Shown here piece after piece: positions 38,896 to 45,188 of a stretch of 64,000 bases of DNA. The notes under the pieces are model-generated. The model worked only from the letters and a program-made list of their open reading frames with translations, did not search any database and had not been told where the DNA came from. The number at the start of each line of letters is the position of its first letter. The stretch's first letter is position 1. The translations under genes and the position numbers were made by a program. The DNA comes from Sphingobacteriales bacterium (GTDB taxonomy: Bacteria > Bacteroidota > Bacteroidia > Sphingobacteriales > Sphingobacteriaceae), in contig RDYW01000033.1 of the NCBI GenBank assembly GCA_004293485.1, positions 28,649 through 92,648 of the forward strand, in the 5' to 3' direction.

Positions 38896-40497
38896 TTATA
38901 ATGCATCGCCACGCAAGGCTCGATACCTTTGGCGAGCTTCGGTAATATAAGGACTGCTAGGATAATTGTTTATAAGGTTTTGATAATTTTGCTGGGCTTG
39001 GCTGGTTAAACCTAATTTTTCTTCTTGTAGCTTAGCCAGTAAAAACAGGGCATCGTCTATATACATGTCTTGGCTGTGCTGGTTAATAATGGTTTGGTAT
39101 TGTAATGCGGCGGCTTGGTTATTGTTTTGTTTTATAAATATTTTGGCTTTGGTAAGTAATACATCATCTTTTAATGTGCCATTGGGATATTGTGTTGTAA
39201 TGCTATCGAGGACGAGTAAAGCTTTAGGTAAATTATTTTTTAATACGTTTAAATCCGCGAAAGCGTACATTTTTAATGCTTTACCAGTGCTGTCGGCTAT
39301 TAAATTATCTTGTATTAATAAGCCTAAATCCAATGCATCGTTGGCTATTAATTGCGATGTTGATGCTTTTAATACATCGAGCTGGCTTTGAGCCCATTTA
39401 AAATCGGCGTTGTAAAACGATAGCTTGGCGTTTCGCAGCTTGGCTTCTTGCCCTAGGGGCTGGTTGGTATATGCTTTTTCTACTTGGCTGTATAACAGTG
39501 CGGCTTCCCATATAGTGTTGTTTATGAGGTAAATATCGCCTAGTTGTAATTTTAATTCGGCTATTTGCTGTTGCGTTATGTTATGCAGTTGCAATGCGTT
39601 AAGCAATAAATTTTGTGCTTGGGTAGGTTTATTTAAGTAGTAAGCTTGCAGTTGTGCTAGGCCTATAATTGCAAATAAAGTTTGGTAGTTTTTGCCGTAA
39701 TTATTTAATAGGGTATTATAATCGTTTTCTAGAGATTGTACATCGGGCATTAACAATGTGCCTTCGGTTAATAGTTGTTTTTTATTATTTAGGTTTTGTA
39801 TTTGGGCAATAATGTAATAGGGCTTAGTATTGCCTTTTGCAATAAGGTATTGATAGGCTTTACATGCTGTTTGGTAATCTTTATTTTGGTTAAAAATTTC
39901 GGCAATTTCAAACACCAATTCACCATCTTGCTGGTTTCTTTTATCTAATGCAATGGTTTGGGCTAAGGCCGATTTAAAATCTTTTTGTTGTAAGTATTGC
40001 CAAATTAGTAATTTAGTCAGGTTAGTATTATCGGGTTGCTTTTGTAATTGTTTTAATATGAGTGTTTTAAGTAAGGCATAATCAATTGAATCTGTAAGAG
40101 TTTTTGCTAGGTTTTTTTTTGCATAATCTACATAATTGGTATCATAATTTAATAAAATAAGAGTTTCATTTATTACATCATTTTTATTTTTTAAGGCGGC
40201 TAAACAATTTATAATTTGTAAACTGAATGCGGTTTTATTGTTTAAAATTTTTCGGCCTTGGATAAATGTTTTTAAAGCGTAAGTATAGTTTTGGCGCATA
40301 TAAAATACGTTTGCCATTTCGTTTATTACATTTTCATCGGGTTTAAGTTGGCTTATTGCTTTATCGTAAATTTTATTTGCTTTTTCGGGCTGTTTATTTT
40401 GTTCGTATGTATAGCCTAAATCAATTTTATTTTGTTGGGCGAATAGCAATACACTAAAAAAATTAAGCATCCATACAAAAATGTATTTTTTAGTCAT
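38896..40497 (-). CDS. Secreted tetratricopeptide-repeat protein
   Basis: Signal peptide, serial TPR helices, QLDVLKASTSQLIANDA, DDALFLLA; upstream of DUF4286. Confidence 0.85.
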   Translation of the reverse strand: MTKKYIFVWMLNFFSVLLFAQQNKIDLGYTYEQNKQPEKANKIYDKAISQLKPDENVINEMANVFYMRQNYTYALKTFIQGRKILNNKTAFSLQIINCLAALKNKNDVINETLILLNYDTNYVDYAKKNLAKTLTDSIDYALLKTLILKQLQKQPDNTNLTKLLIWQYLQQKDFKSALAQTIALDKRNQQDGELVFEIAEIFNQNKDYQTACKAYQYLIAKGNTKPYYIIAQIQNLNNKKQLLTEGTLLMPDVQSLENDYNTLLNNYGKNYQTLFAIIGLAQLQAYYLNKPTQAQNLLLNALQLHNITQQQIAELKLQLGDIYLINNTIWEAALLYSQVEKAYTNQPLGQEAKLRNAKLSFYNADFKWAQSQLDVLKASTSQLIANDALDLGLLIQDNLIADSTGKALKMYAFADLNVLKNNLPKALLVLDSITTQYPNGTLKDDVLLTKAKIFIKQNNNQAAALQYQTIINQHSQDMYIDDALFLLAKLQEEKLGLTSQAQQNYQNLINNYPSSPYITEARQRYRALRGDAL

Positions 40498-40648
40498 AAT
40501 GTTTTAATAATAAGTAAGATATATTTTTAATAACTATTAAATATACAACATTTGTTATGCGTAACTAATTTGTTACACACAATTTGCTGTAAACACCGTG
40601 TAATAGCATTATTTTGTATTTTAAATATCATCAAAATTATGTAAAATA

Positions 40649-42160
40649 ATGACTAGGGCAATTAAATTACCAGGCTTATTTCTTTTAATTTTTTTGTATG
40701 CAAATTGTAATATGCCTGGGCAGCAGAGCATTCCAACAGCATACTTTTTTACTCAAAATAATGTAAGTGATTATCGTATATCGCCCGATGGTGTTTTTGT
40801 ATCTTATGTTAAACGTAAAAATGAAGTAACAAATATTTTTGTTAAAAATATAGTTTCGGGTTACAGTGCTCAAATTACTTATTTAAAAATTGGTAACATA
40901 AAATCGTATTATTGGGCTAACGATAATACCATTTTTTACATCTCATCAAAACCCGATGGAGAATCGTTATATTATGTAAACACTAAAGGAAGAGGTAATT
41001 ATAAAACTTTAAATGCTAATTCAATATCATTTATCGACAGTAAATTATGGTATAATAAGTTTATTTTACTATCATTAAAAAAACATGGTGAACAAACAAA
41101 ACAAGCCTACAGTGTTAATATTGCTACTTGGAAGCCAACTTTAATAGCGGGTTATAAAGGAAGCTATAAACAATTTTTGAATGCTAATAATGCAGATATA
41201 ATAAAAGCAATAAAAAAGTGTTTAAACCCTTCATATTTTGATATAATTGATAATGATGCAAAAAACAATTTTTATATACTAAAAACATACAGCGATAGGC
41301 AGAAAGATGCTTTTTACTTATACAATAAAACTAAAAATACCTGCGATTTATTATCTGATAATGAAGCCATTACCCCAAGTAATTTATGTGAAACAAAACC
41401 TGTACAATTTTCTAAAACAAGTGGCAAAGCAGTGTATGGTTTTTTAACACTACCTAAAAGTGGTACTATTAATTTACCAACAGTAATAATACCATATGCC
41501 AATTCGAACAGTAAAAATAATTTAGGATTTGTACCCGAAGTGCAGTTTTTGGCCCATAAAGGTTACGCTGTGCTACAAATAAAAAGTACACTTAATGTTG
41601 GTTATAGTAACGAGGCTAAAAAAAATGATTTAAAAAAATGGGTATTTGCAATGCAAGCCGATATTATTGTAGCTACCAAATGGTTAATTAAAAAACAAAT
41701 TGCAAACCCCAGCAATATAGGCATATATGGAACAGGTTTTGGTGGTTTTATTGCATTAAACGCTGCATACCAAAAGCCTCAAATATTTAAATGTGCAGCC
41801 GCTTATTCGGGTATTAATAATTTGTTTACTTATTTAAAAGAACATAACACAGCCAGTATATACCAATATTTGCTGTATAACACAAAAAAAAAATCGCTTA
41901 ATGAAGCAAGTTTTATACGTAATTTTTCTCCTGTTTTTAATACCGATAAAATAAATATTCCTTTATTTATAGCACAAGGAGGTAAAGATAATTTGATTAG
42001 TGTTAACGAAACCAACGACTTTGTTAAGATTTTACGAAAACGAAATATTAAAATTAAATACTTAGTTAAAGATGAAGAAGGCCATACCTTTAAAAACAAA
42101 GAAAATATTATTGAGCTATACAATAATTTAGATAACTTTTTTAAACAAAATCTTAACTAA
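40649..42160 (+). CDS. S9 (prolyl oligopeptidase) family homologue, predicted catalytically inactive, probable lipoprotein
   Basis: ISPDG propeller start, VYGFLTLP, PEVQFLAHKGYAVLQ, AQGGKD, EEGHTF; nucleophile elbow reads GTGFGG instead of GxSxGG. Confidence 0.85.
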   Translation: MTRAIKLPGLFLLIFLYANCNMPGQQSIPTAYFFTQNNVSDYRISPDGVFVSYVKRKNEVTNIFVKNIVSGYSAQITYLKIGNIKSYYWANDNTIFYISSKPDGESLYYVNTKGRGNYKTLNANSISFIDSKLWYNKFILLSLKKHGEQTKQAYSVNIATWKPTLIAGYKGSYKQFLNANNADIIKAIKKCLNPSYFDIIDNDAKNNFYILKTYSDRQKDAFYLYNKTKNTCDLLSDNEAITPSNLCETKPVQFSKTSGKAVYGFLTLPKSGTINLPTVIIPYANSNSKNNLGFVPEVQFLAHKGYAVLQIKSTLNVGYSNEAKKNDLKKWVFAMQADIIVATKWLIKKQIANPSNIGIYGTGFGGFIALNAAYQKPQIFKCAAAYSGINNLFTYLKEHNTASIYQYLLYNTKKKSLNEASFIRNFSPVFNTDKINIPLFIAQGGKDNLISVNETNDFVKILRKRNIKIKYLVKDEEGHTFKNKENIIELYNNLDNFFKQNLN

Positions 42161-42164
42161 AAAA

Positions 42165-43838
42165 ATGAAGTCAAATACAACTAATTATAAAAAAAGCTAT
42201 TTTTTAATTGTTTCTTTTTTGGTGTTGATTTCGATTTCGTTGATTGTAGCTTTAATTGTAGGATATAACCTCGCCCGTAAATACGTTGAAAGCGAGTTTA
42301 TAACCTTAAAAACCGAAGTAATGGAAAAAAGCCTCGAACCATATAATACTTTTTTGCAAAACAAAATTCCTCAAGTATCCTATTATCAAGGATTTTTAGA
42401 TTCCTTATCGGCAGCCCAATTTGCTAATAATATTTTGCATACTTACCCTTTTGTTAGTAGAGTTTTATTTTACGATGCCGAAATTAGCAACCACAATATA
42501 ACCGATGGATTTAGATTTAACAAATTATCTATTGGCATAAAAGGATTATATAAATTTAAAATAAACCCGAACAAGGATTCGGTTATAATTTTTAAAAACG
42601 ATAAAGCAGGTAGTTTTACCTTATCAAAAACCGATGATTTTAATAAAATTGGGCAACGCTTTTGTTTTTTAGTAAGAAAAACCGATAGCATAACTTCACT
42701 ATCATCGGATGTAATTTTTAAAACATTTTACAACATATCAAACAACAAAATTACCTACATGGGCGTACCCCGCCCAAACGATTTGATACTTTACAAACAA
42801 CTAATGCTTCACAAAAAAATAAAATCTCCATTATACCAACAAGATATAATTTCCTTCGAACTAAATCCATTTAAAATTAAAATTGTAAACCAACACAAAG
42901 AATTATACCAGTTTATAAGCTTACGCAAAATATCGTACGACCCAGTGTACGAGCAGCCTAACCTTGTTTCTACTAATATTAACCTTCCGGGTGCTTTTGC
43001 CGATTATAAATTATACTTTGCAAGCGAGCGTAATTTTATTAAAAATAGAATACAAAACAGATACTTACCTATAGCTTCGGGTATAACATTTATATACCTT
43101 ATTTTGGTAATTATAATTTTATTATTGTTTCGAAATTTAAGTGTAAACAATAAACTTTTTCAATTACAATACGATTTTATAAATAATTTTACCCACGAAT
43201 TTAAAACCCCGGTATCGGTAATAAAAATAGCAGGCAACAATATTAAACGATCGGCTCAATTAAGCTTGGAAGAAAAAAATCATTATAGCAAAATTTTAGA
43301 CGAGGAAGCCGACAAGCTTAACGATTTAATGAATAAATTACTTTCCCTTGCACAACTCGAGTCAAAATCCATTACATTAAAATACGAAAAACTAAACCTC
43401 GAAGTTTATGTGCAAAATATTATCGACTCGTTTCAATTTAAATATCCCGATTACGAAATAAATCTTGAAATCAAAGATATAACTACCTTCAGCTCCGACC
43501 CAATATTGCTAGCAAGTATTTTTCATAATTTAATAGATAATGCTTATAAATATTCTACGGTAGCCAATAAACAATTAAGTATATTTATTCAGCGAAATCG
43601 TAATAATGTTGATTTTACATTTACCGATAAAGGAATAGGTATTAAACAATCAGAACTTAATAATATATTTAAAAAATTTTATCGAATACAAAATCAATAT
43701 AATCAACAAGGAAGCGTAGGTTTAGGCTTAGCATTTTGTAAAGAACTAGTTGTATTTATGAAAGGCAGCATCACTGTTAAAAGTAATATCGGCGAAGGCT
43801 CATGCTTTCATATAGTTTTACCTTATAAATCAATTTAA
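42165..43838 (+). CDS. Membrane sensor histidine kinase
   Basis: Two TM segments around a large periplasmic domain; H-box FTHEFKTP, N-box NLIDNAYKY, DKGIGI, IFKKFYR, GLGLA. Confidence 0.95.
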   Translation: MKSNTTNYKKSYFLIVSFLVLISISLIVALIVGYNLARKYVESEFITLKTEVMEKSLEPYNTFLQNKIPQVSYYQGFLDSLSAAQFANNILHTYPFVSRVLFYDAEISNHNITDGFRFNKLSIGIKGLYKFKINPNKDSVIIFKNDKAGSFTLSKTDDFNKIGQRFCFLVRKTDSITSLSSDVIFKTFYNISNNKITYMGVPRPNDLILYKQLMLHKKIKSPLYQQDIISFELNPFKIKIVNQHKELYQFISLRKISYDPVYEQPNLVSTNINLPGAFADYKLYFASERNFIKNRIQNRYLPIASGITFIYLILVIIILLLFRNLSVNNKLFQLQYDFINNFTHEFKTPVSVIKIAGNNIKRSAQLSLEEKNHYSKILDEEADKLNDLMNKLLSLAQLESKSITLKYEKLNLEVYVQNIIDSFQFKYPDYEINLEIKDITTFSSDPILLASIFHNLIDNAYKYSTVANKQLSIFIQRNRNNVDFTFTDKGIGIKQSELNNIFKKFYRIQNQYNQQGSVGLGLAFCKELVVFMKGSITVKSNIGEGSCFHIVLPYKSI

Positions 43839-43840
43839 AA

Positions 43841-44524
43841 ATGAATAAAAACATAAAAATTGCTATCGTAGAAGATGATGAAAACCTAAGATTTCTAGTA
43901 GTTCACAGGTTAATTAACGAAGGCTTTACCGTAATACAAACAGGTAATGGCCAGCTCGCCGAAGAGCTAATTATAACCGAACAACCTAATATTGTATTGC
44001 TTGATTGGATGTTACCTCATAAAGACGGTGCGCAAATATGCACCTCGCTTCGAGCCAAAGGATTTGAAAATCAAATTATTATGATGACCGCCAAAGCGCA
44101 AGATCTAGATAAAATTGATGCCTACAATTTTGGCGTATCCGATTACATTACCAAACCATTTAATATGGATGTTATGGTAGCAATGCTCGAAAATAAAATT
44201 AAATATCTACAACCCGATAAGATTGAAATAAATAAATTTGGTACCATGGAGTACCATCCAAATACACTTTCAGTTGTAAAAAACGATATAAAAATAGAAT
44301 TAACTATACTAGAAAACCGAATATTAACTTATTTTTTGCAAAATGCCAATAAAATTGTAAGCCGCGAAGATTTAATGATGGAAGTATGGGGTTACGATGC
44401 CGATTTAAGTACCCGAACCCTAGATATGCACATCGTACGCTTACGCAAAAAACTTGAAACCAACCCCGATAACCCCGAATATTTACAAACCGTACGCGGG
44501 CTAGGATATAGGCTAACTTTTTAG
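43841..44524 (+). CDS. OmpR/PhoB-family response regulator
   Basis: IVEDD, LLDWMLP, MMTAK, DYITKPF, winged helix RTLDMHIVRLRKK...TVRGLGY. Confidence 0.95.
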   Translation: MNKNIKIAIVEDDENLRFLVVHRLINEGFTVIQTGNGQLAEELIITEQPNIVLLDWMLPHKDGAQICTSLRAKGFENQIIMMTAKAQDLDKIDAYNFGVSDYITKPFNMDVMVAMLENKIKYLQPDKIEINKFGTMEYHPNTLSVVKNDIKIELTILENRILTYFLQNANKIVSREDLMMEVWGYDADLSTRTLDMHIVRLRKKLETNPDNPEYLQTVRGLGYRLTF

Positions 44525-44525
44525 C

Positions 44526-45188
44526 TTATAGTTTGTTTAACAATACCTTAAGTTTTTGCCGCCACTCTAACGTAAGTGCTTGCAAGTTTACCAAACGTTG
44601 CAATGCAGCTTTATTTTTATAATCGTGGTAACGTGTATAGTTTACTTCCATTACCGAAACCATAGCGGGGTGTGCGCTTACATGTACAAGCGTGTCGCTA
44701 GGTTTTACCCATCCTTCTTTTATAGTGCGAAAATAAAAGCCTGTATAACCTGTTTCTTGACACAATACAGGAAATTTTTTATAATTATACCTAATACCTA
44801 TCATATAACAAGGGCCTCGCGGTTCCGATACCTCTACCATACTTTCGCCCAGCATATACCTATCTCCAATATATACGTTTTCTTCTAAGGCTACATTGCC
44901 CAATAAGGTAAGATTTTCGCCAAATGCCCCCGCTTTCATATCAATATCTAAAGTGTTTTTCCAATGCATAAACCTATCCGCATTATAGCAACACACCGCC
45001 TTGTCGTTACCTCCGTGGTGCTTCGTATCAATCACAATATCGCCTTTAAAGCCCGTAAAAGTTAAATAAATAGCCCCTATCGTAATAGCTTGCTTATTGT
45101 ATGCAGTATGTGCACTTTGATGATCGGCAACCAATAACTCGGCCTCGCCTTTAATATTTATCGAATGTATAGCTATGTTTTTATTCAT
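44526..45188 (-). CDS. MOSC-domain protein (YiiM-like, with 3-alpha domain)
   Basis: DTKHHGGNDKAV, GAFGENLT, VSEPRGPC, TGFYFR; ATG 45188 preferred. Confidence 0.9.
   Translation of the reverse strand: MNKNIAIHSINIKGEAELLVADHQSAHTAYNKQAITIGAIYLTFTGFKGDIVIDTKHHGGNDKAVCCYNADRFMHWKNTLDIDMKAGAFGENLTLLGNVALEENVYIGDRYMLGESMVEVSEPRGPCYMIGIRYNYKKFPVLCQETGYTGFYFRTIKEGWVKPSDTLVHVSAHPAMVSVMEVNYTRYHDYKNKAALQRLVNLQALTLEWRQKLKVLLNKL

Follow-up and report, generated by a model that had tools for sequence, protein, structure and literature searches.

A near-universal operon of the Sphingobacteriaceae joins a two-component system to an S9-fold partner that has probably lost catalysis repeatedly

Accessory proteins of two-component systems (TCSs) are few and derive mostly from genetics, and none in the literature that we searched is a homologue of the family S9 peptidases. 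In animals, the S9-family proteins DPP6 and DPP10 are auxiliary subunits of a membrane signalling protein, the Kv4 channels. Bacterial lipoproteins can play comparable parts in TCSs: LpqB is reported to bind the extracellular domain of the kinase MtrB and to modulate phosphorylation of the regulator (PMC3353115), and QseG, an outer-membrane lipoprotein encoded in a TCS operon, binds and activates the periplasmic domain of the kinase QseE (PMC6075780, PMC12691602). The Csp pseudoproteases of Clostridioides difficile (CspC/CspA) are dead members of a serine-protease family that have been kept as signalling or receptor components (PMC7200643). Here we describe an operon in a 64,000-nucleotide stretch of DNA from a Sphingobacteriales bacterium (assembly GCA_004293485.1, contig RDYW01000033.1, positions 28,649 to 92,648 of the forward strand; hereafter the window), in which a family S9 homologue without its nucleophile precedes a sensor histidine kinase and an OmpR/PhoB-type response regulator. 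We propose, at slightly better than even confidence and from sequence comparison, that the operon is a family-specific three-component system in which the conserved role of the S9 partner would be non-catalytic, as an accessory or co-sensor of the kinase.

Like MtrAB-LpqB of the Actinobacteria, the locus is a lineage-wide operon of an OmpR-type regulator, a kinase and a lipoprotein, here a putative one. It belongs to another phylum and has another gene order, the putative lipoprotein leading the operon here and LpqB closing it there; nor is LpqB homologous to the S9 proteins, and the interaction between S9 partner and kinase is one that we infer. We know of no enzyme ancestry for LpqB. With QseE-QseG-QseF of Enterobacteria and other Pseudomonadota the locus shares a putative accessory lipoprotein encoded within the TCS operon, whereas QseG is small, helical and not a peptidase homologue, QseF is sigma-54 dependent, and no recurrent enzyme loss is part of that system. 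CspC and CspA differ in having a subtilisin fold and acting in a germination cascade with no kinase or TCS. The nearest parallel within the protein family is with DPP6/DPP10, which carry the same Ser-to-Gly lesion: the window protein aligns with DPP10 (PDB 4wjl, 'Inactive dipeptidyl peptidase 10') at E 1.2e-8, and its GTGFGG falls opposite GKGYGG. These animal proteins are, however, eukaryotic type II membrane proteins of the DPP4 branch, with an ion channel as partner and an independent origin. The architecture of a propeller plus an alpha/beta-hydrolase is that of the acylaminoacyl/S9C-type peptidases (5l8s, 4hxg), which give the best matches by both sequence and fold; what sets the window protein apart from them is the absence of the Ser, of the HGGP motif and of about three propeller blades. 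Full-text searches turned up no account of an S9 homologue partnered with a TCS, nor of this operon in Sphingobacteriaceae, and no characterised S9 peptidase that we came across is linked to a TCS operon. HaeSR of P. gingivalis was considered as a precedent and rejected, as the S9-family protein there is a distant regulated gene and not an operon partner.

The three genes lie on the + strand in the order S9-like, kinase, regulator, separated by 4 nt and then 2 nt, as a first-pass annotation made from the letters alone had described. The features of the locus are as follows.

40560..40576, + strand: upstream direct repeat, the window's version (CGTAACTAATTTGTTAC) of TGTA-N7-TGTTAC; putative regulator site
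40610..40616, + strand: TATTTTG, possible promoter box of the Bacteroidota -7 type, 33 nt beyond the repeat; placed by its spacing relative to the conserved box, promoter role presumed
40649..42160, + strand: S9-fold pseudo-peptidase, putative lipoprotein, 503 amino acids (aa); Pfam, alignment to 5l8s, AlphaFold2 (AF2) and Foldseek
40706-40708, + strand: Cys20 of the S9-like protein, by alignment to orthologues
41156-41185, + strand: deletion junction of the S9-like protein, aa 170-179, by orthologue alignment; low AF2 confidence
41495-41506, + strand: YANS at the HGGP position, by alignment to 5l8s
41735-41737, + strand: Gly363 at the position of the nucleophile Ser, codon GGT, by alignment and codon reading
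41987-41989, + strand: Asp447 of the S9-like protein, by alignment
42083-42085, + strand: His479 of the S9-like protein, by alignment
42165..43838, + strand: sensor histidine kinase, 557 aa; Pfam and hydropathy
42198-42266, + strand: first transmembrane helix (TM1) of the kinase, aa 12-34, by hydropathy
42267-43061, + strand: periplasmic sensor of the kinase, aa 35-299, between the hydropathy peaks
43062-43133, + strand: second transmembrane helix (TM2) of the kinase, aa 300-323, by hydropathy
43173-43364, + strand: HisKA of the kinase, aa 337-400, by Pfam
43497-43829, + strand: HATPase_c of the kinase, aa 445-555, by Pfam
43841..44524, + strand: OmpR/PhoB-type response regulator, 227 aa; Pfam Response_reg and Trans_reg_C

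The first gene encodes a protein of the COG1506/acylaminoacyl-peptidase type, whose family S9 hydrolase domain has an incomplete catalytic triad. Peptidase_S9 (PF00326) covers aa 297-503 at E 2.7e-28, and the best Foldseek match of the AF2 model (per-residue confidence, pLDDT, 84.6; predicted TM-score, pTM, 0.80; hydrolase domain confident) is the acylaminoacyl peptidase 5l8s at E 1.4e-25, within a range of 1e-25 to 1e-21 for S9 peptidases. Alignment to 5l8s places GTGFGG on GGSYGG and PYANSN on PHGGPQ, and shows that QGGKD and EEGH are retained. The nucleophile Ser is therefore replaced by Gly363, encoded by GGT, while Asp447 and His479 are present, and the HGGP oxyanion motif is absent with YANS in its place; the first-pass annotation had read the codon and each of these motifs in the same way. 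Judged by these residues, the window protein is a non-peptidase homologue of family S9 and not an active member. Upstream of the hydrolase, the AF2 model has about 16 propeller strands, corresponding to about four blades (a number taken from the secondary-structure string, not from coordinates), with a disordered or low-confidence junction at aa 170-179. A closed seven- or eight-bladed propeller is not present, with about 115 aa deleted and about three blades gone; the propeller matches the TolB and PD40 models weakly. The hydrophobic N-terminus is followed by Cys20, and Cys occupies that column in at least 90% of orthologues. The residue at -1 is Asn in the window, which is atypical for a lipobox, and Gly or Ser in relatives. 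The earlier suggestion of a lipoprotein-like N-terminus thus gains from the conservation of the Cys and is weakened by the Asn.

The second gene encodes a class I transmembrane sensor kinase, with HisKA and HATPase_c across aa 337-555 (Pfam) and two transmembrane helices by hydropathy. A periplasmic domain of 265 aa lies between the hydropathy peaks at aa 12-34 and 300-323. It leads into the DHp helix with no HAMP domain detected by Pfam: TM2 ends near aa 323 and HisKA begins at aa 337. Aa 1-335 returned no Pfam match even at E <=10, Cache family models included, and no PDB sequence match, in agreement with the unrecognised periplasmic domain of roughly 260 aa noted at first pass. In an AF2 model of aa 1-335, built with 52 orthologues (pLDDT 79.7, pTM 0.68), a long helix at the N-terminus leads to two alpha/beta modules, and a helix at the C-terminal end runs on into TM2, a layout that fits a double-PDC topology. 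Foldseek matches of this model were almost exclusively double-PDC/dCache domains (TlpC, vpHK1S-Z8, KinD, AHK4), all of them weak (E >=6e-3, TM-scores 0.2-0.5). The sensor is predicted to be a divergent double-PDC/dCache-like domain, rather than a proven member of that group.

The regulator combines Response_reg (aa 7-116, E 6e-23) with Trans_reg_C (aa 151-225, E 5e-27), the composition of the OmpR/PhoB family. The NCBIfam models for PhoB, MtrA and YycF match it, and the MtrB model matches the kinase, in each case under the cut-off. Because no NCBIfam equivalog cut-off was reached, the regulator is not PhoB, MtrA, OmpR or the like, and identity of the pair as PhoBR, MtrAB, WalKR or RprXY was rejected, all scores being far under cut-off.

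The operon is a family trait. A profile of the N-terminal 340 residues of the kinase detected a single copy in 190 of the 201 genomes that make up the window's GTDB family here, and in 35 of its 37 genera. Among 401 Bacteroidota genomes sampled across the phylum, the sensor domain occurred in 8, all from that family, and was absent from the other roughly 390. The three genes are near-universal in, and apparently restricted to, GTDB Sphingobacteriaceae sensu lato (Pedobacter, Daejeonella, Olivibacter, Parapedobacter and others), where the operon is vertically inherited as a single copy. The closest S9-like homologues (43-60% identity) have the same gene arrangement and the same flanks, a TPR protein and DUF4286 upstream and MOSC and UbiA downstream. 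The three genes are also kept together in locus L007, where the upstream neighbours differ, and in the distant relative Anseongella ginsenosidimutans, where GFSFGG and HGGP are both intact in the S9 protein.

Linkage was assessed in 66 genome loci from a one-genome-per-species scan, together with 9 metagenome loci and 27 further loci. In every locus with a long enough contig the S9 gene was followed by the kinase and then the regulator, and there the S9 gene was never found apart from the kinase. S9 gene and kinase gene are separated by a median of 4 nt (n=72, range -4 to 31), kinase and regulator by a median of 2 nt; across the 66 scan loci the kinase is 43-79% and the regulator 62-85% identical to the window's. 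An accessory gene is thus conserved within the kinase/regulator operon, as expected of a three-component system, and the linkage that the first-pass annotation had proposed to check held wherever the contig reached far enough. Its candidate new signalling system stands as a three-gene system with an S9 partner, although it is not a one-off but a near-universal core operon of one family.

The catalytic state of the S9 partner varies within this constant arrangement. Scoring as dead any copy that had lost the Ser and/or the His, a reading made from motifs alone, we counted 111 dead and 78 active proteins among 189 orthologues. Most S9 partners in the 66 genome loci, a sample biased by the peptide patterns used in the scan, keep GxSxGG, HGGP, Asp and His, and several separate lineages do not. 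Ser and His are both kept in 31 of the 120 best homologues from a search of 5.8 billion proteins, and Asp in 119 of them; six of the seven family genomes drawn at random in the phylum search carry dead copies. The lesions differ among lineages: Pedobacter-type proteins have GTGFGG with His replaced by Phe, Parapedobacter-type proteins have GAGFGG with His replaced by Arg, most of the window's GTDB genus is dead with GYGFGG or GYRFGG and His replaced by Gln, and other homologues have Asn, Asp, Glu, Gln or Arg at the nucleophile position. Active orthologues with GxSxGG, HGGP, Asp and His all in place occur in Daejeonella and Olivibacter. Close orthologues of the window protein likewise lack the Ser and HGGP, whose retention there would have counted against the first-pass reading.

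Plotting the dead and active labels on phylogenies indicated that they change often. With the catalytic columns removed, the tree of the 189 orthologues requires no fewer than 12 changes of label, all forced by well-supported branches, and an independent tree of kinase plus regulator from 60 operons needs 5. The trees are unrooted, and the direction of change is not provable from them. As regaining Ser, His and HGGP together is implausible, however, we read the changes as losses rather than gains, and the S9 partner probably descends from an active peptidase.

Public names for these proteins do not follow their catalytic residues. Homologues P0021-P0120 are named 'S9 family peptidase' or 'prolyl oligopeptidase family serine peptidase', and about three-quarters of the 120 best homologues lack the Ser, most of them the His as well, despite such names. 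By their motifs, more than half of the 'S9 family peptidase' annotations in this orthologous group would not be serine peptidases as named.

Dead copies appear to be maintained. Pairwise ratios of nonsynonymous to synonymous substitution (dN/dS, Nei-Gojobori) for dead S9 proteins were 0.037 between two Pararcticibacter species (dS 0.27), 0.043 for L035/L036 (dS 1.0), and 0.18 (L003/L012) and 0.25 (L010/L011) within the window clade, compared with 0.03-0.06 for active pairs; in the window clade the kinase gave 0.13-0.17 and the regulator 0.10. No frameshift or internal stop was seen in any dead orthologue examined. Ninety-eight columns are conserved at >=90% in the dead and active classes alike, and clear release on loss is seen only at the His, at the Arg that follows the catalytic Asp by two residues, and at a few positions nearby. 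Of 140 active-conserved positions, a median of 12 deviate in dead copies from outside the window clade (about 91% kept), against 3 in active copies. From the dN/dS values, the open frames and the conserved columns, we conclude that the dead proteins are maintained with their fold and much of their pocket preserved. Since the Ser loss, the linkage and the dN/dS of dead copies (0.04-0.25, below 1 as the first-pass annotation had required) all came out favourably, the simple gene decay that it had offered as the alternative is rejected for the family as a whole, and stays a live option for the window's own copy, the most eroded of the 189.

That copy is unusual in length. All 188 other orthologues, dead ones included, are 608-679 aa long, and the window protein alone lacks about 115 aa, removed in-frame from the propeller, as the earlier suspicion of a missing propeller part had anticipated. 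The deletion form is identical (0 differences, 0 gaps, over 40400-44600) in contigs from four metagenome runs, all from microbial mats in one study and dated 2019 and 2021; mis-assembly was therefore rejected as its cause, and the deletion is real in that population. The source genome is 2.2 Mb (95.5% complete), against 3-4.3 Mb in others of the same GTDB genus. It has about 13 HATPase_c matches, several of them necessarily of the GyrB, MutL or HtpG type, so that the operon kinase is one of a handful retained, and it encodes two further S9 peptidases. The kinase sensor is mildly divergent in the window, with 5 substitutions and 3 gaps at 69 conserved columns.

A direct repeat upstream of the operon offers a candidate site for the regulator. 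The motif TGTA(G/T/C)TTTAAATGTTAC, with two TGT(A/T) half-sites 11 bp apart, precedes the S9 gene in about 40 of 54 loci, and it is kept in L007 despite a different upstream gene. In relatives a conserved TAnnTTG box (TAACTTGAC, TAATTTGAC) follows about 33 nt past the motif, and we take this box to resemble the Bacteroidota -7 element. The window's own site, CGTAACTAATTTGTTAC, scores 11.7 bits on the position weight matrix (PWM). A scan of 61 family genomes tolerated one mismatch; of 30 hits retrieved as loci, 15 precede the S9 gene by 62-156 nt and share its orientation, and the total number of hits fell to about half when the pattern was reversed as a control. OmpR/PhoB regulators typically bind direct repeats spaced by 10-11 bp, so TGTA-N7-TGTTAC is a putative site of the operon's own regulator and autoregulation is likely.

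A wider regulon is less clear. The PWM search of the source genome gave two hits at 20.4 bits, about the chance expectation, and one of these lies between convergent genes. The second (G000 C37:32070-32086, L136) has one mismatch and reverse orientation and stands 45 nt before a GH9-CBM3 cellulase with a type IX secretion system (T9SS) sorting domain; it is probably a chance match. In one genus, the motif occurs 63-100 nt upstream of tandem OMP_b-brl_3/CarboxypepD_reg TonB-dependent-receptor-like genes (921-940 aa), at these positions.

L134 3528-3544 and 6581-6597, and L135 3646-3662 (genomes G259, G179): motif before TonB-dependent-receptor-like genes

These genes are possible regulon members, a weak lead.

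A non-catalytic role tied to the kinase is the best account of the S9 partner because its gene is the first of a tight, family-wide, single-copy operon, because catalysis has been lost at least 12 times under purifying selection, and because the putative lipid-anchor Cys is conserved. The partner would be lipid-anchored in the periplasm and would bind a peptide-like ligand in its propeller/hydrolase cleft, or contact the kinase sensor directly; either event would set kinase activity, and the phosphorylated regulator would bind TGTA-N7-TGTTAC and autoregulate the operon. In lineages with an intact catalytic triad, the partner would cleave its ligand too. The pseudo-peptidase signalling partner of the first-pass annotation thus survives as the best reading, qualified by an ancestor that was probably an active peptidase and by the predicted dCache-like sensor of the kinase. 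A more specific form of the proposal, which we put forward tentatively and at well below even confidence, is that, within one family, the S9 scaffold repeatedly became a histidine kinase's receptor subunit, no longer catalytic, in a bacterial parallel to the pairing of DPP6/DPP10 with Kv4. What the kinase reads would then be the occupancy or open-closed state of its partner rather than free ligand, and the ancestral active form would have linked periplasmic peptide turnover directly to transcription. Several observations count against the accessory role. A mirror-tree/partial Mantel test found no S9/sensor-specific co-variation, with partial r with the sensor of 0.16 for the propeller and 0.04 for the hydrolase, not above the kinase core and far below the regulator. 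The sensor, predicted to be dCache-like, may bind ligand itself and could bind a small ligand without a partner; operon membership fits a co-expressed output gene too; and the label of dead is a motif reading. The window's S9 protein is the worst of the 189 at the 116 columns conserved in >=90% of them (29 substitutions and 21 deleted positions), the ratio of S9 to kinase dN is about 1.5-2x higher in the window clade than in other clades, and none of the RNA runs searched for the window stretch contains it. An alternative is an S9 gene that is a co-transcribed passenger or output of the TCS, for example a periplasmic peptide-trimming enzyme or a TolB-like-propeller scaffold, that takes no part in signal perception and was retained after catalytic loss for some other structural role in the envelope. 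Many two-component operons carry genes that they regulate, and the weak TolB and PD40 matches of the propeller point the same way as the kinase's own sensor and the mirror-tree result. Such a passenger would not, however, be expected to hold the first place in an operon with gaps of a few nt across 35 genera, an arrangement typical of stoichiometric partners, nor never to stand apart from the kinase; and repeated catalytic loss under purifying selection means that enzyme activity is not what is selected. We regard this alternative as rather unlikely. It is very improbable that the dead-looking proteins remain hydrolases through another nucleophile, such as the Ser/Thr before the lost Ser in GTGFGG or GSGFGG, or through other chemistry: a Thr or Ser does often precede the substituted position and the Asp is almost invariant, but the preceding residue is Ala, Tyr, Phe, Asn or Val in many dead copies, and in most of them the His has become Phe, Arg, Gln or Asn, with HGGP degraded too. 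It is this concurrent loss of His and HGGP that speaks against continued hydrolysis.

For the window's own copy, being the most degenerate of the 189, local decay stays a serious alternative to an accessory role. In that case catalysis would have been lost in the ancestor of the clade and about three blades later, leaving a relic beside a kinase and regulator that act alone. Besides its substitutions and deletions at the 116 columns, the protein deviates at 42 of the 140 enzyme-conserved positions, against a median of 30.5 in its clade, itself the most eroded; about 18 positions conserved at >=90% in both dead and active classes fall within the deleted segment; it has the longest terminal branch of its clade in the 189-orthologue tree; the genome around it is reduced; and dN/dS is about 0.33 on the window branch against 0.18 for L010, by a rough three-taxon split of pairwise distances. 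A relic sits poorly, however, with a 503-codon frame that has stayed open in DNA of 28% GC, is identical in four metagenomes of 2019 and 2021 and preserves its 4-nt spacing to the kinase gene. The AF2 fold is confident except at the junction, pairwise dN/dS in the clade (0.25) is well under 1, and the acceleration of the S9 gene relative to L010 (dN +22%) is close to that of the kinase (+16%). Decay of this one copy seems unlikely to us on balance, and the window partner is either a minimal accessory version or on its way out.

Some further observations concern the surroundings of the operon and the records that carry it. The S9-like and kinase genes (40649-43838) have a GC content of 0.28-0.29, lower than the 0.356 of the genome and the 0.35-0.43 of neighbouring genes. 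Horizontal transfer was rejected as the source of this dip because synteny is conserved family-wide and the kinase is GC-poor relative to its locus in relatives too. Divergent from the operon on the - strand, at 38896-40497, lies a TPR/YfiO-like protein of 533 aa that is 600-622 aa long in relatives, a second shortened protein in this 2.2-Mb genome. Two loci, L046 (record Flavihumibacter soli) and L070 (record Chitinophagaceae bacterium), carry the operon despite their Chitinophagales names; both nest among Daejeonella-like and window-related sequences in the kinase plus regulator tree, and they could be contamination, mis-binning, misnaming or transfer.

The module yields a candidate regulator site and, in the TonB-dependent-receptor-like proteins of one genus, a first weak lead to a regulon. 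It also presents a natural experiment, as operons with an active partner (Daejeonella, Olivibacter) and with a dead partner (Pedobacter, Parapedobacter, Pararcticibacter) occur in cultivable genera, so that whether signalling needs catalysis could be answered by allele swap. The main interest of the system lies in these paired versions and in what appears to be a recurrent, selected loss of catalysis.

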